The notes under the pieces: generated by a model
What the model saw: only the letters and a program-made list of their open reading frames with translations
The model's database searches: none
What the model was told of the DNA's origin: nothing
Program-made: the position numbers and the translations under genes
Assembly (NCBI GenBank): GCA_934102215.1
Contig: CAKOSH010000002.1
Location: 87,380 to 151,379, forward strand
Length of the DNA stretch: 64,000 nt
Origin: an uncultured Bacilli bacterium
GTDB lineage: Bacteria; Bacillota_I; Bacilli_A; RF39; UBA660
Reading direction: 5' to 3'
Shown: positions 426-19,860 of the stretch, one piece after another
How the letters are laid out: each line of letters starts with the position of its first letter
Position numbering within the stretch: position 1 is the first letter of the stretch

Positions 426-503
426 TCTTTTTGTTTGGAAAAATCTAGGACTAGTATTTTTTTTGAAAATGTGGTATATTCTTTATAGCATTTAAACTTT
501 TAT

Positions 504-2174
504 TTGAAGGGACGTGATATTATGAGTAAGATTAATATAATGAGTTTAGGTGGACTTAATGAAAATGGTAAAAATTTATATTTAGTAAGTGTTAATAATA
601 AAATACTTATATTTGATTGTGGTATGAAATATGCTCCTGAAAAGATGTATGGAGTAGATTATGTTATACCTGATTTTACATATTTAGTTGAACATAAAAA
701 AGATATAGTAGGTGTATTTATAAGCCATCCACATAGAGAAAATATGGGAGCACTTACTGATTTAGTAAAAGCAATACCTGATATAAATGTTTATGCTTCA
801 GCATATACTAGTGAAATAATTAAATATGAATGCATGGAAGATAAAGTTGAAATAAAGAATCTACATGTTATTAAAGCACATAGAAAATTAGAATTTAATA
901 AAGATTTTAGTGTATTTCCATTTAACGTAACACATAGTAGTCCTGAAACATTGGGATATTCAGTTAATACTAAAGATGGTGCGATTATATATATGGCTGA
1001 CTTTATTATAGATCCAACTATGAATGGTAATTATGATATGGATTTAGGTAAACTTGCATATATTGGTAAACAAGGAGTACTTTGTTTAATGGCAGAAAGT
1101 GTATTTGCTGAAAAGAAAGGGCATACTTCTCCTAATCATAAACTTGAAGGATTCTTTAAAAAAGTTGTTGATAAAGCAGAAGGTAGAATTATATTTACTG
1201 TTTTACCACTTCATATATATACTATTCAAGAAATATTTAATTCATTAAAAGGCAAAAATAGAAAAGTAGTTATTATGGGAAAAGAACTTCATAGTATAGT
1301 TTCTATATGTGTTAAAAATAAATATTTAGATATTGAAGAAGATATGATTGGTAATTTAACTAATCTTAAAGATGATAATTCAGTAATATTAATAAGTAAT
1401 GATAGAGAGACTCCATATTCTAATATAAATAGAATAATAAATGGTCATGATAAATTTATTAGTTTACTTGAAACTGATACAATTTGTTTTGCTGAACCAA
1501 GTTATGATGCATATGAAAAATTACTTGTTAAAATAATGAATGAACTTGCAATAAAAGGTGTAAATATAGTACCTATTCCTAAAGAAAAGAGTGTACGTCA
1601 TCATGCGTCTAGTGAAGACTTAATGATGCTTATAAAACTATTTAACCCTAAATATTATATGCCTATAAAAGGTGAATATAGATATCAAGTAGAAAATGGT
1701 AATTTAGCATATAAAGTAGGTATACCTAAAGAAAATATATTACTTAAAGAAAATGGTGATATAGTTACTTTTGAAGATGGAAAACTTGTTGATAATTTCG
1801 ATAAAATATTTGTAGATGATATATTAATAGATGGTAATTTTGCTGAAGATGTAGGTGAACTTGTACTTAAAGATAGAGAACTTTTAAGTAATAATGGACT
1901 TGTTGTTATATCAAGTACACTTAGTAAAAAAGATAAAAGTATTGTTATTGAACCAGAAGTTATGACAAGAGGATTTATATATGCCAAAGACAATATGGAT
2001 ATAATTAGTGAAATTAAAAGAATAGCTTTAGAAGTTATTAAAGATAATACTTTTTCAAATAAATATGCTGATTATGTTAAGATAAGAAATGATTTAAGAG
2101 AAAAAGTTGGTGATTATTTATATAAAGAGACTCAATGTAAACCAGTTATATTAACTGTTATACAAGAGTTGTAG
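504..2174 (+). CDS. rnj: Ribonuclease J (metallo-beta-lactamase/beta-CASP family)
   Basis: 556 aa. N-terminus MSLGGLNENGKNLY is typical of RNase J, with beta-lactamase fold motifs. Motif II reads HPHREN instead of the canonical HGHEDH. Confidence 0.8.
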   Translation: MKGRDIMSKINIMSLGGLNENGKNLYLVSVNNKILIFDCGMKYAPEKMYGVDYVIPDFTYLVEHKKDIVGVFISHPHRENMGALTDLVKAIPDINVYASAYTSEIIKYECMEDKVEIKNLHVIKAHRKLEFNKDFSVFPFNVTHSSPETLGYSVNTKDGAIIYMADFIIDPTMNGNYDMDLGKLAYIGKQGVLCLMAESVFAEKKGHTSPNHKLEGFFKKVVDKAEGRIIFTVLPLHIYTIQEIFNSLKGKNRKVVIMGKELHSIVSICVKNKYLDIEEDMIGNLTNLKDDNSVILISNDRETPYSNINRIINGHDKFISLLETDTICFAEPSYDAYEKLLVKIMNELAIKGVNIVPIPKEKSVRHHASSEDLMMLIKLFNPKYYMPIKGEYRYQVENGNLAYKVGIPKENILLKENGDIVTFEDGKLVDNFDKIFVDDILIDGNFAEDVGELVLKDRELLSNNGLVVISSTLSKKDKSIVIEPEVMTRGFIYAKDNMDIISEIKRIALEVIKDNTFSNKYADYVKIRNDLREKVGDYLYKETQCKPVILTVIQEL

Positions 2175-2183
2175 GAGGAAGTT

Positions 2184-3308
2184 ATGATTTATTTAGATTA
2201 CAGTGCGACTACACCTGTTGATGAAAGAGTACTTGATTCTTATTGTAAGGTTACAAGAGAGTTTATAGGAAATGCTAATTCTATTCATACTCTTGGTGTT
2301 AAGTCAAAAGAATTATTATTACAGGCTACTAATCAAATCGCAGAAATACTTAATTGTCATCCTAAAGAATTAATATTTACTAGTGGTGCTAGTGAAAGTA
2401 ATACAACTGCTATAAAAGGAGTGGCATTTAGATATGCTAGAAGAGGTAAACATATAATAACTTCTAAACTTGAACATAAAAGTGTTTTAGAAGTTATGGG
2501 ATATTTAAGTAATATTGGTTATGAAATAGATTTTGTTAATATACTTCCTAATGGACAAATAGATTTAAAACATTTAGGAGAATTAATAAGAGATGATACT
2601 ATACTTGTAAGTATATGTGCAGTTAATAGTGAAACAGGATTTAGACAACCACTTAAAACTATAAGACAAACTATTAATAAAAAGAATCCTAATGTTATAT
2701 TCCATAGTGATTTAACACAAGCACTTGGTAAGACTAAGTTTTATTTAAGTGACCTTGATTTAGCTAGTTTTTCTAGTCATAAGATTTATTCACCAAAAGG
2801 AATTGGAATTTTATATAAAAAAAGAGATTTACAAATAGATACATTAATATATGGTACTACTGAAAATTGTCCATTTAGGGGTGGAACTCCAGCATTACCA
2901 CTTATTGTTTCATTTGCTAAAGGTATGAGACTTGCTAATGATAAATTAGATTCTAATATAAAAAAATGTGAGAAATTAAAAAGTGAATTATTAAAAGGAC
3001 TTTCTAAATATCCTATACAAATAAATTCTAATGATTTATGTGTTCCTCAAATAGTTAACTTTAGTTTACTTAAGATAAAGTCTGAAACATTTGTTCATGC
3101 TCTTGAAAGATATGATGTGTATGTAAGTACAACAACAGCATGTTCTAGTTTAGAAGAAAGTACTGTACTTAAAGCCATTGCTAATGGAGATAAGAGTGTA
3201 TCAACTACATCTATTAGAGTTAGTTTAAGTCATTTAACTACTATGACAGAAATACATGAATTTTTAGAAATATTTGATAAAGTATGGAATGAGTTGTTGT
3301 TAAAATGA
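2184..3308 (+). CDS. Cysteine desulfurase (class V aminotransferase, NifS/NifZ-like)
   Basis: 374 aa. PLP-lysine motif SSHKIYSPKGIG. Lies immediately upstream of thiI, the NifZ-ThiI arrangement of Firmicutes. Confidence 0.75.
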   Translation: MIYLDYSATTPVDERVLDSYCKVTREFIGNANSIHTLGVKSKELLLQATNQIAEILNCHPKELIFTSGASESNTTAIKGVAFRYARRGKHIITSKLEHKSVLEVMGYLSNIGYEIDFVNILPNGQIDLKHLGELIRDDTILVSICAVNSETGFRQPLKTIRQTINKKNPNVIFHSDLTQALGKTKFYLSDLDLASFSSHKIYSPKGIGILYKKRDLQIDTLIYGTTENCPFRGGTPALPLIVSFAKGMRLANDKLDSNIKKCEKLKSELLKGLSKYPIQINSNDLCVPQIVNFSLLKIKSETFVHALERYDVYVSTTTACSSLEESTVLKAIANGDKSVSTTSIRVSLSHLTTMTEIHEFLEIFDKVWNELLLK

Positions 3309-4480
3309 AAAAAGTAATATTAATTAAATATGGTGAACTTACTACTAAAAAAGATAATAGAAAATTCTTTATTAAAACATTAAAGAATAATATTTTTGAT
3401 AAATTAAGTGATTATGATATTGTTGTTACTGATGACTATTATCGTATGTTTATAGAAGTAAATGAAGATGATATTGATTCTATTATCGATAAGCTTAAAT
3501 GTATATTTGGTATACATGAAATAGCTGTTTGTTATAAAGATGAAAATGTAAATGAGGAAGAAATCAAGAAAATATCTTTAATGGTTATGAAGGAAGAAGA
3601 CTTTTGTACGTTTAAAGTGGAAACTAAAAGAAGTGATAAAAGTTTTCCTATTAAGTCAATGGATATGAATAATATTATAGGTTCACTTATTCTTAAGAAT
3701 ATTGAATGTAAAGTAGATGTTCATAATCCTGAAATTATTCTTAATATTGAAATAAGACGTGAAGGTTTTTATGTTTATACAAAAAGTATTAAGTGTTTAG
3801 GTGGATATCCTGTAGGTACTTTAGGTCGCGGGCTTTTAATGCTTAGTGGTGGAATAGATTCTCCAGTTGCTGGATATATGACTATTAAAAGAGGAGTAGA
3901 ATTATATTATTTATATTTTGAAAGTAGACCACACACAAGTATAGAAGCTAGAAATAAAGTAAGAGATCTTGCAAGAAAACTAGAAAAATATAATACTAAT
4001 GGTAAACTTATGGTAATAAATTTTACTAAAATACAAGAAACTATATATAAAAATTTAGATACAACATACTTAATTACAATAATGAGAAGAATGATGTATA
4101 GAATAGCAGAAAGAGTTGCTAAAAAGAATAAATGTTTAGCAATAGTAAATGGAGAAAGTGTAGGGCAAGTAGCAAGTCAAACATTATCAAGTATGATTGC
4201 TGTTAATGATGTTACAAACTATCCAATATTAAGACCACTTTGTTCATTTGATAAACTTGATATAATAGAAATATCAAAGAAAATTGATACATATGATATA
4301 TCAATACTTCCATATGAAGACTGTTGTACAGTTTTTGTACCAAGACATCCTGTTATTAATCCTAATTTAAAACATATTTATAGTGAAGAAGCAAAGATTG
4401 ATTTTGATACTTTAATAAATGAAGCAGTTAATACTATTGAGGTAGTTGATTTAAAAGAAATTAAAAGTGATTTGTTATAA
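3305..4480 (+). CDS. thiI: tRNA 4-thiouridine synthase ThiI
   Basis: 391 aa. THUMP-like N-terminus and PP-loop SGGIDSPVAG. Translationally coupled to the desulfurase. Confidence 0.85.
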   Translation: MKKVILIKYGELTTKKDNRKFFIKTLKNNIFDKLSDYDIVVTDDYYRMFIEVNEDDIDSIIDKLKCIFGIHEIAVCYKDENVNEEEIKKISLMVMKEEDFCTFKVETKRSDKSFPIKSMDMNNIIGSLILKNIECKVDVHNPEIILNIEIRREGFYVYTKSIKCLGGYPVGTLGRGLLMLSGGIDSPVAGYMTIKRGVELYYLYFESRPHTSIEARNKVRDLARKLEKYNTNGKLMVINFTKIQETIYKNLDTTYLITIMRRMMYRIAERVAKKNKCLAIVNGESVGQVASQTLSSMIAVNDVTNYPILRPLCSFDKLDIIEISKKIDTYDISILPYEDCCTVFVPRHPVINPNLKHIYSEEAKIDFDTLINEAVNTIEVVDLKEIKSDLL

Positions 4481-4537
4481 TCACTTTTTAAGTATAAATT
4501 TAACATTAATATACATAATATTTAATGGTGAATAGAT

Positions 4538-4693
4538 ATGCTTATGAATAATAAATTTAGTAAAAGAAATAGTTTACTTTATAAAATGAAATGTATTAAT
4601 ACAAGAAATATGGAATATCAAGAATGTGATAATTTTGAATATGGTAGAATAGAAAAGTACAATGATAAATGTTGTACTCGTAAATGTAAATAG
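4538..4693 (+). CDS. Small cysteine-rich hypothetical peptide (51 aa), not in the ORF track
   Basis: Hand translation gives MLMNNKFSKRNSLLYKMKCINTRNMEYQECDNFEYGRIEKYNDKCCTRKCK. Six Cys in 51 aa in a Cys-poor genome. Weak GGTGA RBS 7 nt upstream. May be spurious. Confidence 0.2.
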   Translation: MLMNNKFSKRNSLLYKMKCINTRNMEYQECDNFEYGRIEKYNDKCCTRKCK

Positions 4694-4903
4694 TCAAATG
4701 ACTATTTTTTTCTGCATTAAAAATGAGATTGATTTTGGTATAGATATCTTTATTATAAATACTACCATAAACACCTACAATGATCATTCTATATCATATT
4801 TGATACGTCAATTATTAGTCATATATATTATTTATGTAAAAATCACAAAAAAGTAGTGTTTTATTATTTTATCGCTTATATAAATACTAGGAGATAATAT
4901 AAT

Positions 4904-5557
4904 ATGGAGTATGATTTAAATTTTCTTAAAAATGATAATGTAATAAATATAACTAAAATTAAGAACTTTGTTATAGATGAATTAATTACCATTATTAATT
5001 ATGATAATGTAATTATGAATTATTTGGTAAAAGAAGATAATGATGCAACGGTAAAATATGAAGATATTACAGAAAAATGGTTGGGTTTAAAACTAAGTAA
5101 TTTTCCTATGATAAAAAAATACGAAATGAATGACTATTTCAATTATAAAAATAAAAAATATAAATATGATGGACACTTTATTAAATATAGTTTTGATGAA
5201 GGAGAAGAAGAATTTGCAAAATGGTTGTCAAAATTGACTGATAAGCAAATAACTTTAATGCCTAAAATAAATTATCCTTTAAGTGTGAGAGTGCCAGATT
5301 ATAGAATAGGTAATAAATATTATGATTTAAAAACAATTTATGGTAATGATAAGCAAATAATTTATCATAAAATTCGAGGAAATAGTAACCAATCAAAAAG
5401 ATTTATTTTTGATATTTCTGAAAAAAGTTTATTGACATTAGAGGAATTATTACAACAATTAAATAAAATATTTAGTAGTTTTAATACTGATGTAAACTGG
5501 GTAGAAATGATAGGTATAAGATATAATGATAAGTTTATGATGTTTAAAAGAAAATAA
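4904..5557 (+). CDS. Hypothetical protein
   Basis: 217-aa ORF with an AGGAG RBS. No recognisable motif. Confidence 0.4.
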   Translation: MEYDLNFLKNDNVINITKIKNFVIDELITIINYDNVIMNYLVKEDNDATVKYEDITEKWLGLKLSNFPMIKKYEMNDYFNYKNKKYKYDGHFIKYSFDEGEEEFAKWLSKLTDKQITLMPKINYPLSVRVPDYRIGNKYYDLKTIYGNDKQIIYHKIRGNSNQSKRFIFDISEKSLLTLEELLQQLNKIFSSFNTDVNWVEMIGIRYNDKFMMFKRK

Positions 5558-5561
5558 AAAA

Positions 5562-5606
5562 TTGGCTAACCCCCGCGGAATTTCGCAAGGATTGCCAATT
5601 TCTTAT
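5562..5606 (+). terminator. Rho-independent terminator-like hairpin (AATTGGCTAACC...GGATTGCCAATT)
   Basis: Inverted repeat with an unusually GC-rich core (CCCCCGCGG) directly after the stop codon, followed by TTTCTT. Confidence 0.4.
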
Positions 5607-9396: not shown

Positions 9397-10161
9397 ATGA
9401 GGGATTACTTTAAATACAGATTTGGTGAAGATATAGAATTTAATATTAAAGATGGAGAATTTGTTTCTATAATAGGTAACAATAATGATTTACTTGTTCA
9501 TACTCTTTTATTTGGAAATAAAAAAGCAAATATATTTCTTGGAGATATAGAACTTAATAAAATAAATATGGGAAAAGCAAGAAGAAGAATGAATTATGTA
9601 CTTTATAAAGATTTAGATATCTTCGTAGCAGAAACTGTTATGGATGAAATAGCATTTGGTCTTGAAAGTCTTGCGATGAGTAAAAATGATATAAAAGAAA
9701 AAATAGAATCAATGGCTAAAAGATTTAAAATGACTGATTTACTTAATAAAGATCCAAATAGTTTAGGATGTAGTGATAAAATTAAAATGAAAATCATGTC
9801 ATCATTAATAATAAGGCCTAAAGTATTTGTTATAGATAATATATTATCACTACTTGATTACAATGATAAAATATTAGTATTTGATATATTAAAAGAATTT
9901 TGTAAAGATACAGGTATTGTTATTAACTTTACTAATGATATTGAAGAAACTATGTATGGTGAAAAAATAATAATCATATATGATAAAAAACTTATATGTG
10001 AAGGTAAGACACTTAGTGTTTTAAATGAAGAAAAGATTCTTAAAAGACTTGGTCTTGGTTTACCATTTATTGTTGAACTTAATAAGTACTTAATGGATTA
10101 TAAATTAATTGATAAATATTATCTTACAAATAAGAAGTTAGTAGGTGCGATATGGAAATAA
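9397..10161 (+). CDS. ecfA1: ECF transporter ATPase component EcfA1-like with a degenerate nucleotide-binding site
   Basis: ABC-ATPase fold at the conserved ecfA-ecfA'-ecfT-truA position. The Walker A region reads IIGNNNDLLVHTL with no GK[ST]. The signature is LGCSDK and Walker B is VFVIDN. Confidence 0.6.
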   Translation: MRDYFKYRFGEDIEFNIKDGEFVSIIGNNNDLLVHTLLFGNKKANIFLGDIELNKINMGKARRRMNYVLYKDLDIFVAETVMDEIAFGLESLAMSKNDIKEKIESMAKRFKMTDLLNKDPNSLGCSDKIKMKIMSSLIIRPKVFVIDNILSLLDYNDKILVFDILKEFCKDTGIVINFTNDIEETMYGEKIIIIYDKKLICEGKTLSVLNEEKILKRLGLGLPFIVELNKYLMDYKLIDKYYLTNKKLVGAIWK

Positions 10162-10997
10162 AGTTTGATCATGTAAGCTATGTAGTAAATGAATTTACAC
10201 CTCTTGAAAAAACTATATTGAATGATGTTTCTTTTAGTATGAAAGGTCCAGGAATATATGCAGTACTTGGCTCTTCTAATAGTGGTAAAACAGCAATAGG
10301 AGATTTAATTAATGCGTTACTTGTGCCAACTAAAGGTAGTGTTAAAATAGGTAGATTTACTAATAATGGAGTTAATAGAATAAAAAATATAGATAAACTT
10401 CGTTTTGATACAGGATATGTATATAAAAATCCATATGATATGTTCTTTAATAATACAGTTAAAAAAGAAATAGAATATGGAATGAAATACTTTAAATATA
10501 AATTAGAAAAAATAGATATGAGAGCAAGTGAAGCACTTAAACTTGTAAGTCTTGATGATAGTTATTTAGATATGAATCCTCAAGATTTATCATTTTGTGA
10601 TGCGAAAAAAGTAGCACTTGCATGCGCTCTTGTATATAATCCAAGCGTATTAATATTAGATGAATTTACCGCAGGACTCACATATAAAGATAAAAATGAA
10701 TTATTAAGATTACTTAGAATACTTAAAACTAAATATAAAAAAATGATAATATTACTTTCTAAAGATACAAGCTTTTGTTATCAAATAGCTGATTATGTAT
10801 ATCTTATGCATATGACTAAACTTGCTTGTGAAGGAGAAAAAGAAATATTAAATAACGTAGAAACATTAAAAGAACTTGATCTTGAAGTTCCACCAATAGT
10901 TGATTTTGTAAATGAATGTAATAAAAATGGACATGAAATATATCACTATACAACAACTCATGATTTAATTAAGGGGGTGTATAGAGATGTATTCTAG
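10152..10997 (+). CDS. ecfA2: ECF transporter ATPase component EcfA2
   Basis: Walker A GSSNSGKT and Walker B LILDEFT are present. The LSGGQ signature is degenerate (LSFCDAKK). The H-loop His appears replaced (LLSKDTS). Confidence 0.65.
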   Translation: MEIKFDHVSYVVNEFTPLEKTILNDVSFSMKGPGIYAVLGSSNSGKTAIGDLINALLVPTKGSVKIGRFTNNGVNRIKNIDKLRFDTGYVYKNPYDMFFNNTVKKEIEYGMKYFKYKLEKIDMRASEALKLVSLDDSYLDMNPQDLSFCDAKKVALACALVYNPSVLILDEFTAGLTYKDKNELLRLLRILKTKYKKMIILLSKDTSFCYQIADYVYLMHMTKLACEGEKEILNNVETLKELDLEVPPIVDFVNECNKNGHEIYHYTTTHDLIKGVYRDVF

Positions 10998-12521: not shown

Positions 12522-13758
12522 ATGAAAGATAAGAAATATATTTATATTACATTAACAATAGTATTTTTAGTAGCTGCATTAGGTATATCTTATGCATAGT
12601 TTAATGCTGTTATAAAAGGTAATGATACTGCTAAAGAGCAGTCTGTTATAACAGGTAATTTAGAACTAACTTTTACTGATGACACTGAAGTTACATTACC
12701 AAATGCAGTACCAGGAGATTCTTATACAAAGACTATTTCAGTAAAGAATACAGGTACATTAGATGCAAGTTATAGTTTAGTATGGCAAGAGTTAACTAAT
12801 GAAATCACTAATGACGAATTAGTTATAGAAGCGACTTGTAAACGTTTAAATAGTTCTAATACAGAAGAAGGTACATGTGAAGCAATAGCTCAAACACCTA
12901 TTAAATCAAATACAATAAAAAAGAACATTTCAATAGAACCTTCTGTTACTCATGAATATACAATTAAAGTAACATTCTTAGATACAGGTAGTTTGCAAGA
13001 TTATAATAAAAAGAAATCATTTAGTGGAAAACTTGGAATTAATGAATATAATTTACCAACATCAGTATCATTTACTGAAGATTCATGGGAAACAATAGCA
13101 GAACTAGTTAAAGCGGGTAAAACAGATACTTATAATGTTGGAAATACTAAAACAATAGATATGGGAACTTATGGTATTCATACAGTACGTGTAGCAAATA
13201 AATCAACACCAAGTGAATGTTCTACTACTGGTTTTTCACAAAGTGCATGTGGATTTGTACTTGAATTTGCAGATATTATAACAACACATGCAATGAAAGA
13301 CTCTGCTACAAATAAAGGTGGATGGCCAGCAACATCAATGAGAACATTTGTAAACAATGATATATATATAATGCAATACCGGAAGAAATAAAGAATGCAA
13401 TAATAGATACAACAGTAGTATCAGGACACGGAAATGAAGATACAGAAAATTTTACATCAACTGATAAATTATATTTATTAGCGCCAAAAGAAATATATAC
13501 AGATTGGTCTGATAATTATGATGATGCAAGATATTTAACAAGAACATTAGATTGTTATATAGCTAAAGAAGTAACAACAAGTAACTATAGTGGAGCTATT
13601 AAAAATAATGAATCTAATGCTGATTATTGGTGGCTTCGTTCGGCACCTTGGCGTAGTAGCTATGACCAGAATTTCTATTGTGTAGGCAAAAATGGTAATT
13701 GGTGTGGACTCAGCGCAGATGATATTTATGGTGTTTCACCAGCATTCCGTATCGGATA
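12522..13758 (+). pseudogene. Disrupted paralog of the TasA/camelysin-like secreted protein at 52013-53245
   Basis: Homologous along its whole length to 52013-53245. In-frame TAG at 12597-12599 where the paralog has TAC (YAYFS vs YA*FN). A +2 frameshift falls in a (TA)5 tract near 13365, against (TA)4 in the paralog. Homology continues about 110 bp past the stop. Confidence 0.75.
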
Positions 13759-13893
13759 GTGTAAAAGAAATGTAAAGAAAGAATGGCGTACAATATTATT
13801 TTGGAGTACTAAAACTGATCCGACTAAAAAATAATAAAGTATGATGTATGTTATAAAAGAATAAAAACAAAATCATTGGAAATTTGAAATTTA

Positions 13894-13911
13894 GGTACTA
13901 GAAATAGTACC
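13894..13911 (+). terminator. Hairpin GGTACTA-GAAA-TAGTACC followed by a T-run
   Basis: Perfect 7-bp stem with a GAAA loop followed by TTTTATGTT. A near-identical hairpin sits at 19364-19381 and a related one at 51907-51924. Confidence 0.45.
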
Positions 13912-13954
13912 TTTTATGTTGTATAATTATCTATAGTATAGAGGTGTGTGTATT

Positions 13955-16900
13955 ATGAATAAAAAGGTTAAAATATTACTTATTGTTATATCTATAACAG
14001 TATTTTTTTATATTGGATATTATTTTATAAAAAGGGATAATAATTTAATTAATATAACTTCTTTATCTAAAGAATTTGTTGCTACTTATTATAATGAATT
14101 AAGTAAGAGTGATTCTAATGAAGAAAAAGATAATATGCTTATTGTAATTTCTCCTAAAAAAATAAAAAATACTTATGGTGCTTCTAATATTATTGAAGCT
14201 CCTAATAATCAATATATATTACAATATGATTCAAAAGAATTAAAAGATAAAGCATTGAATAAATTAAATAATGATAGGAATATTAAAAGTGTTGAAGAAA
14301 ATGAAACGATTGAATTATTTGAATCTAGTGGTACAAGTGAATTTAGTTATAATTCCTGGGGAATAGAAAAAATGTCATTAAATACCGCTAGTGATTTTGC
14401 TAATAGTCAAGAACTTAATAATGTTAATGTTGCAATAATTGATACTGGACTTGATGTTTTATTATTTAATAAATATTATTCTAGTAAACTAGCTGGAACA
14501 TATAATGTACTAGATAATTCAACTAGTTTAGAAGATACTGATGGACATGGAACACATATTGCTGGAACAATTGCTGAAAGTACACCAAATAATATAAAAA
14601 TATTACCAATTAAGGTTTCAACAAATGGTACAATGTATATAACTGATATTGTTGCTGCTATTAACTATATTGTCTATAACAAAAATGCTGATGTAATTAA
14701 TATGAGTTTTGGAAGTTATTATAATTCAGAATCTTTAGAACAAGCAATTATATCTGCAAATTCTAATAATGTTATTTGTGTTGCTGCTGCTGGAAATGAA
14801 AATACATCTAGGTTGAGTTATCCTGCATCATATGACACTACTATTTCAGTTTCATCTATAGATTCGGAATTAAATAAATCTAGTTTCTCTAATTATGGTT
14901 CAAAAATAACATTTACTGCTCCTGGAACAAACATAAAAAGTATTATGGGAAAAGATACAGATATTTCAATAAAAAATGGTAATAACGATGATGATGATCA
15001 TGAAATAATCAGTGGAACTTCAATGGCTACTCCCCATGTTGTAAGTGCAGTAGCAATATTAAAAAGTTATAATAAAAATTTAACTTTAGAGAATACAATT
15101 GATAATTTAAAAGAAAAAACAATTGATTTAGGAGATCCTGGTTGGGATAAATATTATGGATATGGTTTAATTTCATTTGAAAATGTTGAATTTTGTGATA
15201 AAACATATTGTGATGAATTTGGTATTTTTAAAGATGATAATAAACATATTACAGGATTTAAATTAAATGAATTAATCTTTACAAAATATAATTATTACTC
15301 AATAACTAATCTTTTAGCAAGTAAAATTAATATTACATATAATGATAATTCTAGTGAAATAATGTCATTAGGTGATATATCAAATTTAAAAATATTAAAT
15401 TATGATCCAAATTCTTCTCTTAAACAAACTGTAACATTAAATATTGATGATATCAATTTAGATATAGAAGTTACTAATCCAACAGATTATCTTTCTGGAT
15501 GGGAATATAATGTTTTAGAAGGCGATACAATTGAAATTACTGGTTATAAGAGTCATGATTTAAATATAAAGAAATTATATATTCCTGAAACGATTGATTA
15601 TAAAAATGTTATTTCATTTATAGATAATATTAAGTTTAGTGAGATAAGTCGTGATTTTGATAATTATGAATATTTATATTTACCTGAAAAATTTAATAAA
15701 ATAGGTGACTATAATTTTATAAATAGTAAAATTAAATATTTAGAAGGTGATAGTAAATCAGTAAGTGTTGGAAGTCATAGTTTTGAATCTAGTTCTATTA
15801 TTAAAATTGATATTCCAGTAAGTGATGTTTCTGATTACGCATTTAAAAATTGTTTGGAATTACTATATATAAATATAATTGGTAAATCAACATCAAAAAC
15901 TGCTACTATAGGTGACTATGCATTTTATAATTGTAAGAAATTAGAAAAAGTTTTATCTACAAGTGGCGCTAATACTATGTCATTAGGAAATTATGCATTT
16001 TATGATAATATATCTTTATCTACTTTTGAACTAGATATGCATGATAATATAGGTGAGTATGCATTTTATAATACACAGTCATTATTAGCATTAGAATTGG
16101 GTTATGCTTCTTCTTTTGGTAAATATGCTTTTTATGGTAGTGGTATTTATGAAATTGATCTTTCATATAGATTAGAAGAAATAAATGAATCAACTTTTGA
16201 AAACTGTAAAAATTTGCAAAAAGTTTCTTTTACTGCTGGAAAAATTGGTCCAAGAGCATTTTATAATTCAAATATTAAATATATTTCTTTTAGTGATGTT
16301 AATTATATAAGTGAGAATGCATTTGCGTATAATCCAATTAGTGATGGAAATACAACTGTAAGTGATTCAAAAGTTTATGATTATATCTTTGATGTCGGAA
16401 TATATGAAGTAGCAACAAATAAATTAATAATTGGTTTTTCCGGTAAATCTACTACAAAGAAAAGAGTTGAAATTCCTGATTACATAACTGAAATAGGAAA
16501 TTATGCTTTTACTGGAAATAGTGATTTAAAGGAAATAACAATACCTTCAAGTGTTACAAAAATAGGTGATTATGCGTTTATGGATTGCTATCAATTATCT
16601 AATGTATATTTGCTTGGTAATGATGTAACATTCGGAAGTGAAACATTTAAAAGATTATATGAAGGTGAAATTCAAAGTAACAATTTAAATATATATGTAT
16701 ATAAAGATTCACAAGCAAAACAACTTGTAGAAAATTATGGATTAAATTATAGACATTACGAACCGGATAAATATGAAATATTAAATATGAAAGATAAGTA
16801 TGTTGCTAAAAAATATATTACTGGTGAAGATGTTCCTGTTATTAAGTTAACTTATATTGAAAAAGAAGTAAGAGAAGAAATAGTCAGTGATGAAACATTC

Positions 16901-18205
16901 GCTAATGGTCCTATATCAACTGGTCATGCTTTAAATCTTGAATATGAAAATTCAAATTCTGGTCTTCAATATGGTGATACATATATTATTTTAAATATAA
17001 AAAATAGTTTGGGTTATGTTGTTGCTAGTGATGAGAAGGTTCCAATAGTAGTAGTAAAAGCAACTCCTGTATATACTATTCCTAAAAATATAACTGCAAA
17101 GATTGGACAAAAATTATCAGAAATAGTTCTTCCAGATAACTTTGAATGGATGGATAAAGATGAAATAATTAGTGAAATTGGAAGTGTTATTTATAAAGCA
17201 AAATATATTCCAAATGATACTAAAAATTATGAAATAGTTGAAAATATTGAAATACCTGTGTTGGTTGAAAGTTCAAAGACTATAATAATTCCAGATATAA
17301 GTATAAGTAATAAAACATATGATGGAACTAATAATATTAATGTTTCAAATATTAATATTACAAATTTAGATAAAAATGATTATAGTATTGTTAGTGCTAT
17401 TGCTGAAAATGTAAATGTCGGTGAACAAACAGCTGTAGTAAAATTAAGATTAACAGATGATAAATTTTTATTGTATAGTTTTGAAAATAATGAACAAGAA
17501 AGTGAATTTAGAATTTCATTTAATATTGATAAAGCAGATATTATTTTAGAAGATTTATCAAAAGATGTTCATGTTACTTATGATAATGATTATCATAGTA
17601 TTGATATTAATATCAAATCTAATTTAAATTTTGTTATAAAATATTGTGATGAAAATGGTGAATATAATTTTGATGATTTGCCTAAATATAAAGATATGGG
17701 TAGTTATATTATTAAATATAAAGTGTCTATTGATAATAATTATAATGATTATTATAGTCAAAAAACATTAACAATTAATGACAATGTAACATATATAATT
17801 GAAAAATATAGAGTTATTGAAGATTCACATTATATATCAAGAATTATGCCTAATACTACAAAAGATAAATTTACAAGCAATATTAAGCTTGGAACTGATT
17901 ATTCAGTTAATATTGAAACTATTAAATTAGAAGATAAAGATTTATTATATACAGGTTCTAAAACTAGTATATATAGAGGTTCTAATGTTTATGCTGATTA
18001 CATTAATATAGTAATAGGTGATATTGATGGAGATGCTGAAGTTACATCAAGTGATTTATTAAAAGTAAGACAACATTTAATTGGAACAAAAATACTTGGT
18101 GGAATATATTTATTATCAGCAGATATAGATGATGATGCTGAAATTACATCAAGTGATTTACTTAGAATAAGACAACATCTAATTGGAACAAAGGTAATTT
18201 CTTAA
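13955..18205 (+). CDS. Subtilisin-like serine protease (S8) with BspA-type leucine-rich repeats and a C-terminal double dockerin
   Basis: N-terminal TM/signal anchor. S8 catalytic triad motifs DTGLD, HGTHIAGTIA and GTSMATPHV. Central repeats of the IGDYAFYNC(K)KL type (LRR_5/BspA-like). C-terminus has two 22-residue Ca-binding dockerin-type repeats, GDIDGDAEVTSSDLLKVRQHLIG and ADIDDDAEITSSDLLRIRQHLIG. Start placed at the ATG at 13955 with a GAGGTG RBS. Confidence 0.8.
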   Translation: MNKKVKILLIVISITVFFYIGYYFIKRDNNLINITSLSKEFVATYYNELSKSDSNEEKDNMLIVISPKKIKNTYGASNIIEAPNNQYILQYDSKELKDKALNKLNNDRNIKSVEENETIELFESSGTSEFSYNSWGIEKMSLNTASDFANSQELNNVNVAIIDTGLDVLLFNKYYSSKLAGTYNVLDNSTSLEDTDGHGTHIAGTIAESTPNNIKILPIKVSTNGTMYITDIVAAINYIVYNKNADVINMSFGSYYNSESLEQAIISANSNNVICVAAAGNENTSRLSYPASYDTTISVSSIDSELNKSSFSNYGSKITFTAPGTNIKSIMGKDTDISIKNGNNDDDDHEIISGTSMATPHVVSAVAILKSYNKNLTLENTIDNLKEKTIDLGDPGWDKYYGYGLISFENVEFCDKTYCDEFGIFKDDNKHITGFKLNELIFTKYNYYSITNLLASKINITYNDNSSEIMSLGDISNLKILNYDPNSSLKQTVTLNIDDINLDIEVTNPTDYLSGWEYNVLEGDTIEITGYKSHDLNIKKLYIPETIDYKNVISFIDNIKFSEISRDFDNYEYLYLPEKFNKIGDYNFINSKIKYLEGDSKSVSVGSHSFESSSIIKIDIPVSDVSDYAFKNCLELLYINIIGKSTSKTATIGDYAFYNCKKLEKVLSTSGANTMSLGNYAFYDNISLSTFELDMHDNIGEYAFYNTQSLLALELGYASSFGKYAFYGSGIYEIDLSYRLEEINESTFENCKNLQKVSFTAGKIGPRAFYNSNIKYISFSDVNYISENAFAYNPISDGNTTVSDSKVYDYIFDVGIYEVATNKLIIGFSGKSTTKKRVEIPDYITEIGNYAFTGNSDLKEITIPSSVTKIGDYAFMDCYQLSNVYLLGNDVTFGSETFKRLYEGEIQSNNLNIYVYKDSQAKQLVENYGLNYRHYEPDKYEILNMKDKYVAKKYITGEDVPVIKLTYIEKEVREEIVSDETFANGPISTGHALNLEYENSNSGLQYGDTYIILNIKNSLGYVVASDEKVPIVVVKATPVYTIPKNITAKIGQKLSEIVLPDNFEWMDKDEIISEIGSVIYKAKYIPNDTKNYEIVENIEIPVLVESSKTIIIPDISISNKTYDGTNNINVSNINITNLDKNDYSIVSAIAENVNVGEQTAVVKLRLTDDKFLLYSFENNEQESEFRISFNIDKADIILEDLSKDVHVTYDNDYHSIDINIKSNLNFVIKYCDENGEYNFDDLPKYKDMGSYIIKYKVSIDNNYNDYYSQKTLTINDNVTYIIEKYRVIEDSHYISRIMPNTTKDKFTSNIKLGTDYSVNIETIKLEDKDLLYTGSKTSIYRGSNVYADYINIVIGDIDGDAEVTSSDLLKVRQHLIGTKILGGIYLLSADIDDDAEITSSDLLRIRQHLIGTKVIS

Positions 18206-18215
18206 GGAGGACGAA

Positions 18216-19364
18216 ATGAAGAAGTTAAATAAAATCATTACATTTATGTTAGTATTTATGCTGTTTGGACTTAATGTTCAGGCAGCAAGTGCTAATTTAT
18301 CTGTTAGTAAAAGTAGTATATATGTGGGTGATTCTTTTAATGTGACAGTTAAAGCAAATGGAGTAGCCGCATGGAATATTCATATTTCAGCAAGTGGTCC
18401 TGTTAGTGGTTGTAAGTTAGACCAAGCTGATGCTACTGCTGATGCACTCGATACAAACAAAACATTTAGTGTTACATGTAAATCAACTGGAGAAGGAACA
18501 ATAACTGTAACATTAAAGGGTGATGTTACTAGTAGCAGTGATGGTAAGCCAGTAAAACTATCTAGTAGTAAAACTGTAATTGTTAATAAAAAAACTACTA
18601 CAACTACGACTACTAAGAAAACAACTACAACAGCAAAGAAAACAACAACTACTAAAAAAGTAAATGACACAACTACTACAACAACAAAGAAAGTTACAAC
18701 TACACAAAAAGTAGAGAAAAATAATGATGCAACTCTTAAAAATATAACAGTTGATGGATATGACATTAAATTTAGTAGTAATACTTATGAATATACAATT
18801 AACGTTAAAAATAATGTTAATAAATTAAATTTAAATATATCTAAAAATAATGATAAATCTAATTATGAAATAATTGGAAATGATAAGTTAGTAGCTGGTG
18901 AAAATAATATAACAATTAAAGTTACTGCTGAAGATGGAACTGTAAAAGAATATAAAATTAAGGTTATTAAAGAAAAAGAAAATATTGTTTCCAATAATTT
19001 AACACTTAATAATATTAAAATAGATAATTATGAATTGAATTTCTATAAAGATAATTATGAGTACAATTTAAAAATAAATAATGAAGATAAATTAAATATA
19101 TCAGTAGATATAGATTCTAATTTAAAATACGAAATAAGCGGTAATACTAATTTAAAAAATGGTACTCAAATTATTATAAAAGTAACTGATTCAAATGAAG
19201 AAAGTATTTATAAAATAAATATTAAGAAAGATGAATCAAGTACTTTAAATATATGGATGATTATTTCAATAATATGTTTCATTATTATAATTGTATTATT
19301 AATTTTATATATTAAATTAAAGAATTATCATAAAAAAGAAGATATTGTTGTTATTAATGAATAG
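18216..19364 (+). CDS. Membrane-anchored surface protein with an N-terminal beta-sandwich (possibly cohesin/Ig-like) domain, Thr-rich linker and cadherin-like repeats
   Basis: Signal peptide MKKLNKIITFMLVFMLFGLNVQA. A roughly 100-aa domain (SIYVGDSFNVTVKANG...). A poly-Thr linker (TTTTTTTKKTTTT...). Three repeats of the type ATLKNITVDGYDIKFSSNTYEYTINV. C-terminal TM plus KLKNYHKKE tail. Confidence 0.6.
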   Translation: MKKLNKIITFMLVFMLFGLNVQAASANLSVSKSSIYVGDSFNVTVKANGVAAWNIHISASGPVSGCKLDQADATADALDTNKTFSVTCKSTGEGTITVTLKGDVTSSSDGKPVKLSSSKTVIVNKKTTTTTTTKKTTTTAKKTTTTKKVNDTTTTTTKKVTTTQKVEKNNDATLKNITVDGYDIKFSSNTYEYTINVKNNVNKLNLNISKNNDKSNYEIIGNDKLVAGENNITIKVTAEDGTVKEYKIKVIKEKENIVSNNLTLNNIKIDNYELNFYKDNYEYNLKINNEDKLNISVDIDSNLKYEISGNTNLKNGTQIIIKVTDSNEESIYKINIKKDESSTLNIWMIISIICFIIIIVLLILYIKLKNYHKKEDIVVINE

Positions 19365-19388
19365 GTACTAGAAATAGTACTTTTTCTT
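19364..19388 (+). terminator. Rho-independent terminator GGTACTA-GAAA-TAGTAC followed by TTTTTCTTTT
   Basis: Overlaps the TAG stop at 19362-19364. Same hairpin sequence as at 13894. Confidence 0.5.
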
Positions 19389-19424
19389 TTGATAAAGTGT
19401 TTACAATGTATGTTTAAATGTGAT

Positions 19425-19860
19425 AAACTATTATTAGTGAAGCACCTGACCCCTGTAGGCTAGGTATCACACTAATTGTGTTTGAACCTAACTACAAAGT
19501 GAGTTAGGTGATTTTTTTAATCTATGAAGATTAAAGAAATTATTATAAAAAGTAATATGAATATAATAACAAGTAAAAAACTTATTAAAAAATCTTTCTT
19601 ACTCATATAATATCACCTCCTTATTAGAAAAATAATGGAAGTGACACCTAGCCTCAAGTGCTTCGATATGTAGAGTAGCATATATATATAAGTAATGCAA
19701 ATAGGTAAAATTTAATTTTGAGATAGTTTTTCATATTGAAAATTCAATTATTCCCTAGGCGAAAATTTAATTATGAATTATATTTTAGTATGCAAAATTC
19801 AATTTTAAGTAAATTTCAAAAAAATTTATCAATCATATAAAACAAAATGCGAATAGTTTC
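19425..19860 (-). other. Conserved structured element, copy 1: upstream repeats, 5' stem, SD, 29-aa hydrophobic peptide ORF, 3' hairpin and 3' stem. Type I toxin-antitoxin-like
   Basis: Reverse-complement homolog of 61665-62070. 5' stem GGCTAGGTGTCAC (RC of 19641-19653) pairs with 3' GTGATACCTAGCC (RC of 19458-19470). Hairpin ACCTAACT-N8-AGTTAGGT at 19486-19509. Four AAAATT(C/T)AATTTT-type repeats at 19706-19805. Confidence 0.5.
19517..19606 (-). CDS. Small hydrophobic membrane peptide (29 aa), putative type I toxin-like
   Basis: Minus-strand translation gives MSKKDFLISFLLVIIFILLFIIISLIFID, preceded by AAGGAGGTGA. A paralog lies at 61891-61977. Absent from the ORF track because it is below the size cut-off. 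Confidence 0.5.
   Translation of the reverse strand: MSKKDFLISFLLVIIFILLFIIISLIFID

Follow-up and report, generated by a model that had tools for sequence, protein, structure and literature searches.

A dockerin-bearing subtilisin-like protease and its membrane-anchored neighbour: a probable surface-display cassette with exchangeable heads in uncultured bacteria

Cohesin-dockerin pairing is familiar chiefly as the link that holds together large complexes for polysaccharide degradation. In a 64,000-nucleotide stretch of contig CAKOSH010000002.1 from an uncultured Bacilli bacterium, hereafter the window, a dockerin forms the C-terminus of a subtilisin-like protease (gene A), and a second gene (gene B) encoding a membrane-anchored protein follows immediately on the same strand. 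The question raised by this locus is what such a dockerin binds. Our analysis indicates that genes A and B probably constitute a one-to-one dockerin/receptor cassette for the surface display of exchangeable cargo, and that the N-terminal domain of the gene B product (B_N) is likely to be the partner of the gene A dockerin. The two genes are laid out as follows, in window positions, with residues given in amino acids (aa).

13955..18205, + strand: gene A, dockerin-bearing subtilisin-like protease, 1416 aa from the ATG at 13955
13955..14038, + strand: signal-anchor of gene A, aa 1-28, with a hydrophobic core at aa 7-25 (hydropathy and sequence)
14420..15166, + strand: Peptidase_S8 catalytic domain, aa 156-404 (PF00082, E 1.7e-42)
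15722..16759, + strand: BspA-type leucine-rich repeat (LRR) region, limits approximate, aa ~590-935 (PF13306)
17783..18004, + strand: "X-like module", a small beta module just before the dockerin, aa 1277-1350
18005..18202, + strand: dockerin with two calcium-binding F-hand repeats, aa 1351-1416 (Pfam match aa 1355-1409)
18206..18215, + strand: 10-nucleotide (nt) spacer between the genes, with the GGAGGA Shine-Dalgarno sequence of gene B
18216..19364, + strand: gene B, membrane-anchored stalk protein, 382 aa
18216..18284, + strand: signal peptide of gene B, aa 1-23, ending in VQA before AS (from sequence; the A-A-S site is conserved in the alignment)
18285..18593, + strand: B_N, candidate dockerin receptor, 100-aa beta-sandwich, aa 24-126
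18594..18722, + strand: Thr/Lys-rich linker, 24 Thr in 44 residues
18723..19235, + strand: two cadherin-like beta-sandwich repeats, aa 170-254 and 259-340 (family hidden Markov model, HMM)
19248..19313, + strand: C-terminal transmembrane helix of gene B, aa ~345-366

The dockerin of gene A is genuine by profile, by sequence matches in the PDB and by predicted fold. Dockerin_1 (PF00404) matched with 34.3 bits over the whole protein and with 40.8 bits when the C-terminus was searched alone, the cut-off being 22.9 bits, and nearly all partner loci described below passed the same threshold. The two repeats, DIDGDAEVTSSDLLKVRQHLIG and DIDDDAEITSSDLLRIRQHLIG, are 22 residues long, are separated by 12 residues and follow the calcium-binding pattern of Asp/Asn at positions 1, 3, 5 and 12 with a helix thereafter (DIDGDAEVTSSD-LLKVRQHLIG and DIDDDAEITSSD-LLRIRQHLIG). 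The C-terminal 101 residues matched PDB dockerins, best among them 8x39 (E 2.2e-10), the dockerin of the Clostridium thermocellum S8 protease. A protein search with the dockerin tail returned 11 fragments, which were used for an AlphaFold2 (AF2) model of the last 140 residues and for the converse linkage test given below. The model (predicted local distance difference test, pLDDT, 93.8; predicted template modelling score, pTM, 0.86) places the beta module at positions 1-77 and helices at 89-99, 107-113 and 123-134, and predicts beta module and dockerin as a single rigid unit. Superposed on a type I dockerin of C. thermocellum, its dockerin deviates by 0.9 Å, and its fold is indistinguishable from that of cohesin-binding type I dockerins. 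The preliminary description of this locus, made from the letters alone, had recognised a dockerin with two 22-residue repeats, which our profile check bears out; its "double dockerin" is, however, a single module.

A dockerin-like module might have no protein partner at all, and modules whose partner is not known occur in many non-cellulolytic organisms. That of gene A could be a calcium-dependent stabiliser or bind the wall or a glycan, its linkage to gene B then reflecting a joint adhesion function. The functional ambiguity of the second dockerin of C. thermocellum dDoc_0689 is in keeping with this explanation (PMC12484212). The predicted fold speaks against it, as does conservation: across 58 distinct dockerin/B_N pairs both repeats keep the putative recognition stretch NSADLLK.RQHLLG nearly unchanged, as expected of a protein-binding face, and the B_N surface motifs AAWN.H and GPVSGC are likewise invariant. 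Together these stretches fit a conserved interface, and we consider a dockerin without a partner quite unlikely.

The candidate nearest at hand is the product of gene B, whose start at 18216 lies 10 nt past the gene A stop, as the preliminary description had it. With B_N as query, 18 loci were fetched from species-representative genomes and 47 from metagenomes; four of the latter start less than 210 nt before B_N and were left out, which leaves 43 testable. The same-strand open reading frame (ORF) directly upstream of B_N ends in the beta module and dockerin in 18 of 18 genome loci and 43 of 43 metagenome loci, with ~85-110 nt from the end of the dockerin to mature B_N. Conversely, the dockerin tail as query led to four contigs, all with a B_N gene 13-18 nt downstream. 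Both queries combined, a dockerin-ended gene is followed by a B_N gene in 65/65 testable loci, which lends strong comparative support to the early suggestion that the downstream membrane protein is the partner of the dockerin.

What precedes the beta module varies from locus to locus. The S8 domain with LRRs is the upstream head in 19 loci plus the window, a papain-family C1 peptidase (Peptidase_C1) in nine, and Listeria-Bacteroides repeats with no assigned head family in seven, whereas M6 metallopeptidase, Amidase_3, metallo-beta-lactamase (Lactamase_B) with choline-binding repeats, DUF11, and choline-binding repeats alone are single or rare heads. The sampled cargo classes include no glycoside hydrolase head. 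What stays constant across these swaps is confined to beta module, dockerin and gene B, the beta module being kept with the dockerin in all cargo classes. Because the tail and gene B alone are constant, a relation between dockerin tail and gene B can explain the pattern, whereas a helper, inhibitor or substrate role of gene B toward the head cannot. Tight operon coupling would also fit a gene B product that acts on A in such a way, be it by assisting export or folding, by serving as substrate or by inhibiting the head as a tethered protein. However, the heads are unrelated and include enzymes and non-enzymes (S8, C1, M6, amidase, metallo-beta-lactamase, choline-binding repeats only), a range over which a head-specific helper or inhibitor cannot explain the conservation, and gene B varies with the dockerin, not with the head. 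We regard this explanation as very improbable. Since the protease is one of several interchangeable heads, the system is not protease-specific, and the protease-display system first proposed for this locus has to be widened accordingly.

The exchange of heads is seen between close relatives of the window (related loci are numbered with an L). The cassette lies between truA and the sporulation genes yabP and yqfD, a site shared by L003, L004 and L021-L023; the preliminary description had placed the pair outside conserved synteny, which these relatives contradict. In L004 and L022, whose flanks are 85-90% identical to the window in DNA, positions 13963-17785 are replaced by an unrelated C1-peptidase head, whereas 13893-13962 and 17786-19394 (beta module, dockerin and gene B) stay 86-90% identical. 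Homology with these two loci resumes exactly at 13893, and the start of the beta module is the point where homology with relatives of different cargo resumes. The flanks of L021, at 97.6% DNA identity, mark it as conspecific with the window, and at the protein level the two dockerins are 98.7% identical; compared with gene A, however, the L021 protein (479-5593) is only 55% identical in the S8 domain and 25-30% in the LRRs. In the more distant L011 (5495-9760) the corresponding values are 61% for the dockerin, 72% for S8 and 51% for the LRRs. These mosaic identities show that heads pass from one lineage to another separately from the anchor module, and one breakpoint coincides with the start of the beta module. 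L003, from the complete chromosome of a metagenome-assembled genome (CP091739.1), has its dockerin tail and its gene B broken into several reading frames at 9559-10513, which is probably an assembly frameshift error and not decay.

A hypervariable region beside a conserved small partner gene, replaced at strain level, could also suggest a polymorphic toxin/immunity-type system. The polarity is the reverse of that expected: it is the N-terminal and central part that varies, while C-terminus and following gene stay constant. An immunity protein would moreover be small and cytoplasmic, whereas gene B encodes an exported membrane protein of 382 aa. We reject this explanation and give it next to no likelihood.

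Is B_N a cohesin? The preliminary description suggested a small cohesin or Ig-like module; a beta-sandwich is indeed modelled (AF2, pLDDT 85, eight strands), and as a cohesin it is a candidate. B_N matched no Pfam family above threshold. A number of results weigh against B_N as a cohesin or as the dockerin receptor. Pfam Cohesin (PF00963) gave no match to the window's B_N even at E<=10, and no cohesin was found in a PDB profile search with B_N. Sub-threshold Pfam matches among 61 diverse relatives were to BatD (33), Big_3_5 (13), FlgH (9) and Cohesin (7, the best at E 0.0076), which makes BatD the commoner weak match (33/61 versus 7/61). An hhalign comparison of the B_N family with an alignment of five type I cohesins (1AOH, a CipA relative, 1G1K, 5NRM_A and 4UMS_A, checked against the PDB) gave a probability of only 11.5% (score 23.3). 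The reciprocal B_N HMM search found no cohesins (<=4 bits), most of the B_N-cohesin signal comes from strands one and two, and a single DUF11 sequence reaches a score similar to those of single cohesins. With ~100 residues and eight strands, B_N is also smaller than cohesins, which have ~140-150 residues and nine strands. Mutual-information covariation between dockerin and B_N columns (58 pairs) reflected clades only; the mirror-tree correlation of dockerin and B_N (r = 0.81) is as expected for linked genes.

The faint resemblance to cohesins was also set against controls. In hhalign, reversed profiles scored 10-12, shuffled ones reached 23.3 in 1/100, 0/100 and 1/100 cases, and the control families (cadherin-like, beta-module) gave probabilities of 0.1-0.5%. 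A type I cohesin HMM run with filters off produced colinear weak matches, with 7 of 135 B_N family members at >=10 bits (top 16.5), whereas none of five control sets (reversed B_N, shuffled B_N, cadherin-like domains, the rest of the B proteins, cargo windows) reached 10 bits, the highest score being 8.6. In Foldseek searches with B_N, the Archaeoglobus fulgidus cohesin 2xdh ranked 8 amid macroglobulin and CARDB domains; cohesins 2w1n, 2vo8 and 2xdh are among the top fold neighbours, and invasin, macroglobulin, CARDB and Ig-like domains equal them. A strongly reduced cohesin and an Ig fold of the CARDB/DUF11 type would suit this compact beta-sandwich equally well, and on true homology between B_N and cohesins we lean a little to the negative side. 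It is possible, if rather doubtful, that B_N is an unrecognised compact dockerin receptor and not a cohesin, and that the pair is a portable "plug-and-display" cassette with swapped heads, spread between low-GC Bacillota and Saccharibacteria (candidate phyla radiation, CPR), groups that alike have small genomes and live in gut and rumen. In that case strains would swap heads (proteases, a wall amidase, others) and so alter their attack on, or attachment to, host or partner cells.

The cohesin results also bear on a further explanation, in which a canonical cohesin, from another genomic locus or from a partner organism, receives the dockerin, and gene B is a co-transcribed adhesin or stalk that makes no contact with the dockerin. 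Known cohesins are all longer than B_N, which also falls short of the Pfam Cohesin cut-off, and both points suit this explanation. A scan of the window and of related loci, the latter as ~0.5 million residues of translated six-frame ORFs and not as whole genomes, turned up no canonical cohesin; one may be encoded elsewhere. Adjacency without exception across cargo classes and two phyla, and conservation of the beta module, dockerin and gene B alone through cargo swaps, are hard to reconcile with a distant partner, and we find this explanation unlikely.

If B_N is the receptor, as we favour, the products of both genes suggest how the cassette would work. The gene A model is identical to the gene calls on two public contigs. 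Its N-terminal anchor, foreseen in the preliminary description along with a complete subtilisin domain and a BspA-type LRR array, comprises aa 7-25, the sole strongly hydrophobic stretch of the protein, and the signal-anchor has no obvious AXA cleavage site. The Peptidase_S8 profile is matched and the Asp-His-Ser triad stands in S8 order (D163, H198, S356; DTG from 163, HGTH from 198, GTSMA from 354). LRR_5 (PF13306) matched in three stretches (E 8.7e-45; best Pfam stretch aa 676-793), with weak matches to LRR_8 (aa 843-890) and YDG. Because the Pfam scan of the gene A protein detected no Inhibitor_I9 propeptide, we only infer that the region between anchor and S8 domain is probably, like that of other subtilases, a pro-region lost on maturation.

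In gene B, a transmembrane helix near the C-terminus is followed by a 16-aa basic cytoplasmic tail, and the cadherin-like profile PF12733 matched aa 174-252 (E 3.1e-10). The layout agrees with the preliminary description in its signal peptide, ~100-aa beta-sandwich, Thr linker and C-terminal membrane helix; of the three cadherin-like repeats claimed there, we found two. B_N, of which gene B carries one copy only, contains two Cys in addition to its invariant motifs. After the gene A TAA the spacer reads GGAGGACGAA and runs directly into the ATG of gene B; the GGAGGA in this 10-nt spacer implies translational coupling of the two genes. An antisense ORF at 18380-18766 (- strand, 128 aa, nearly all Val/Phe runs) was rejected as a gene because it mirrors the Thr-codon-rich linker of gene B.

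We propose that A and B, a translationally coupled operon, encode an enzyme plus its dedicated surface anchor. The domain identities, dockerin fold, operon structure, invariable linkage and head swapping on which this scheme builds are shown by the analysis, whereas the contact of dockerin with B_N, its calcium dependence and the part played by propeptide processing are inferred. The gene A product would be exported and first held through its N-terminal signal-anchor, its LRR region probably binding the target; removal of the pro-region, should it occur, would free the protease from its own anchor. The dockerin would then bind B_N, presumably in a calcium-dependent manner, and keep the protease on the cell surface. 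The gene B product would be a type I membrane protein with its C-terminal helix in the membrane, the Thr-rich linker and the two cadherin-like domains forming a stalk with B_N at its distal tip. The beta module, dockerin and gene B would together act as a constant "socket", the head being exchanged by recombination.

An exhaustive profile search placed B_N in a family of at least 730 clusters at 50% identity (E<=1e-3), or 368 at E<=1e-10. The domain is almost always N-terminal, and in the members scanned cadherin-like repeats usually follow it; the two sequences read (P0082 and P0146) have a transmembrane helix as well. A further protein, P0161 (1470 aa, high-G+C), carries six B_N-like repeats in tandem, with Cadherin and fn3 domains behind them; should B_N be a dockerin receptor, P0161 would represent a polyvalent relative akin to scaffoldins.

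Cassettes were found once or twice per genome, and in distant genomes they have other neighbour genes. The metagenome-assembled genome (MAG) CAZZAK01 contains two separate cassettes, L005 and L016, whose B_N domains are 62% and 46% identical to that of the window and whose dockerins have diverged too; this joint divergence suggests that the two pairs may be orthogonal. The window has ~24% G+C throughout, and the Bacillota lineage to which the cassette belongs has chromosomes of ~1.5 Mb. Thirteen loci have 34-49% G+C: those from genomes (L006, L007, L012, L013, L018, L020) are in MAGs labelled Candidatus Saccharibacteria or Nanosyncoccaceae, all labels being the depositors' own, and those from metagenomes include L031, L033-L035 and L038, the loci named here being at 40-49% G+C. 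In the high-GC loci checked, cassette G+C equals flank G+C, and the flanking genes of L007 cluster with Saccharibacteria-named proteins of other assemblies, on contigs of up to 745 kb. Both observations indicate that the cassette is native to the Saccharibacteria-labelled genomes as well as to the low-GC Bacillota lineage, which points to cross-phylum sharing with the 24% G+C Bacillota.

At the site itself, the cassette is bracketed by the following elements.

13892..13927, + strand: upstream boundary, with copy 1 of a 19-nt repeat (13892-13910), a terminator-like hairpin (13893-13912) and a promoter-like site
19362..19380, + strand: copy 2 of the 19-nt direct repeat, overlapping the gene B stop codon

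The promoter-like site is TAGAAA-17-TATAAT at 13899-13927. The 19-nt direct repeat TAGGTACTAGAAATAGTAC is exact (0.05 copies expected by chance), and each copy folds into a hairpin with a run of T behind it. Duplication of a terminator and a scar left by recombination are two possible origins. Upstream, 12522-13760 is a disrupted gene of ~410 codons: a TAG interrupts the frame after codon 25, and the frame shifts near 13370. Its N-terminus resembles a TasA/camelysin-type signal, and its C-terminus contains YWWLRS. The segment 12465-13892 that contains this gene is absent from this site in L004 and L022, and a copy 69% identical to the pseudogene is found elsewhere in L003 (897-1963). Downstream, yabP and yqfD follow gene B immediately. 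The gene B-yabP spacer (19395-19835) does not align to L004, L022 and L023, where the gap is ~140-150 nt, and has no match in Rfam. It contains a very hydrophobic 29-aa ORF, MSKKDFLISFLLVIIFILLFIIISLIFID, at 19517-19606 (- strand) with a strong ribosome-binding site, AAGGAGGTGATAT, and faces a terminator-like hairpin (19486-19509, + strand); the ORF may encode a type I toxin-like peptide. The preliminary description had set the pair between a pseudogene and a toxin-like element. The pseudogene is there, whereas the genes next downstream are yabP and yqfD and only the 29-aa ORF is toxin-like.

The cassette has partial counterparts in known systems. The S8 double-dockerin protease of C. thermocellum, Clo1313_0689 (PDB 8x39/8x3a), binds the cell-bound scaffoldin ScaD (PMC12484212). 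It has two dockerin modules and belongs to a cellulosome producer, whereas gene A has one module. The partners of Clo1313_0689 are canonical multi-partner cohesins encoded elsewhere, whereas gene A has a candidate dedicated partner 10 nt downstream; gene A further differs in the beta module before its dockerin and in its LRRs. In Ruminococcus flavefaciens, the papain-like cysteine peptidase RflaF_05439 docks to the anchoring cohesin ScaE through an X-dockerin dyad (PMC12484212, PMC3573020). The A-B cassette would resemble this system in docking a peptidase to a monovalent cell-surface anchor, with the beta module in the putative place of the X module, and its sister loci with C1 peptidase heads resemble RflaF_05439 itself.

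Transmembrane-anchored single-cohesin proteins are described in Ruminococcus, including "AF2-only" cohesins that escape Pfam and CDD profiles (PMC13463774). The gene B product is similar in being a candidate monovalent, membrane-anchored receptor missed by profiles, although the Ruminococcus receptors are cohesins and B_N is only a candidate for the cohesin fold. The genomes with those receptors also encode dozens of dockerin proteins, mostly carbohydrate-active enzymes (CAZymes), whereas the A-B pairing is one-to-one and operonic and the heads found are not glycoside hydrolases. Use of the cohesin-dockerin pair apart from cellulose breakdown, as would apply to A-B, is seen in the Clostridium perfringens NagH/NagJ toxin complex (2ozn, 2w1n, 2vo8) and the A. 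fulgidus cohesin (2xdh), both of which appear among the structural neighbours of B_N. Those cohesins are full-size, recognised by profiles and located inside enzymes without fixed gene adjacency, whereas B_N sits on a membrane stalk.

Other gut cohesin-dockerin systems, the Ruminococcus bromii amylosome and the Limousia mucinolysome, include dockerin-bearing peptidases (PMC4611034, PMC12997984), and such dockerin-peptidases are contained in mucinolysomes (PMC12997984). They assemble multiple enzymes on polyvalent scaffoldins, whereas A-B has a single enzyme and a single candidate receptor, in one or two cassettes per genome. A cellulosome has a polyvalent scaffoldin and many dockerin CAZymes; here gene B has one B_N, and no glycoside hydrolase was found among the sampled cargo. 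New in the A-B cassette are the strict one-to-one operonic pairing, the candidate receptor domain outside current families, the head swapping at a fixed anchor and the host range, as well as the lack of glycoside hydrolase heads in the sample.

Here the same plug is pared down to the minimum, a single enzyme with a single membrane stalk, both specified by adjacent genes. Its hosts are uncultured gut and rumen bacteria with genomes of ~1.5 Mb, together with Saccharibacteria-labelled MAGs, and its heads are mostly proteases. If the dockerin does dock onto B_N, B_N would found a new receptor domain family that current profiles miss, the arrangement would provide an annotation rule for surface-displayed enzymes in poorly known lineages, and protein engineers would gain a naturally modular display system offering many orthogonal dockerin/receptor pairs. 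That strains swap heads while the anchor stays fixed points to selection acting on the proteins that these bacteria present at their surface.

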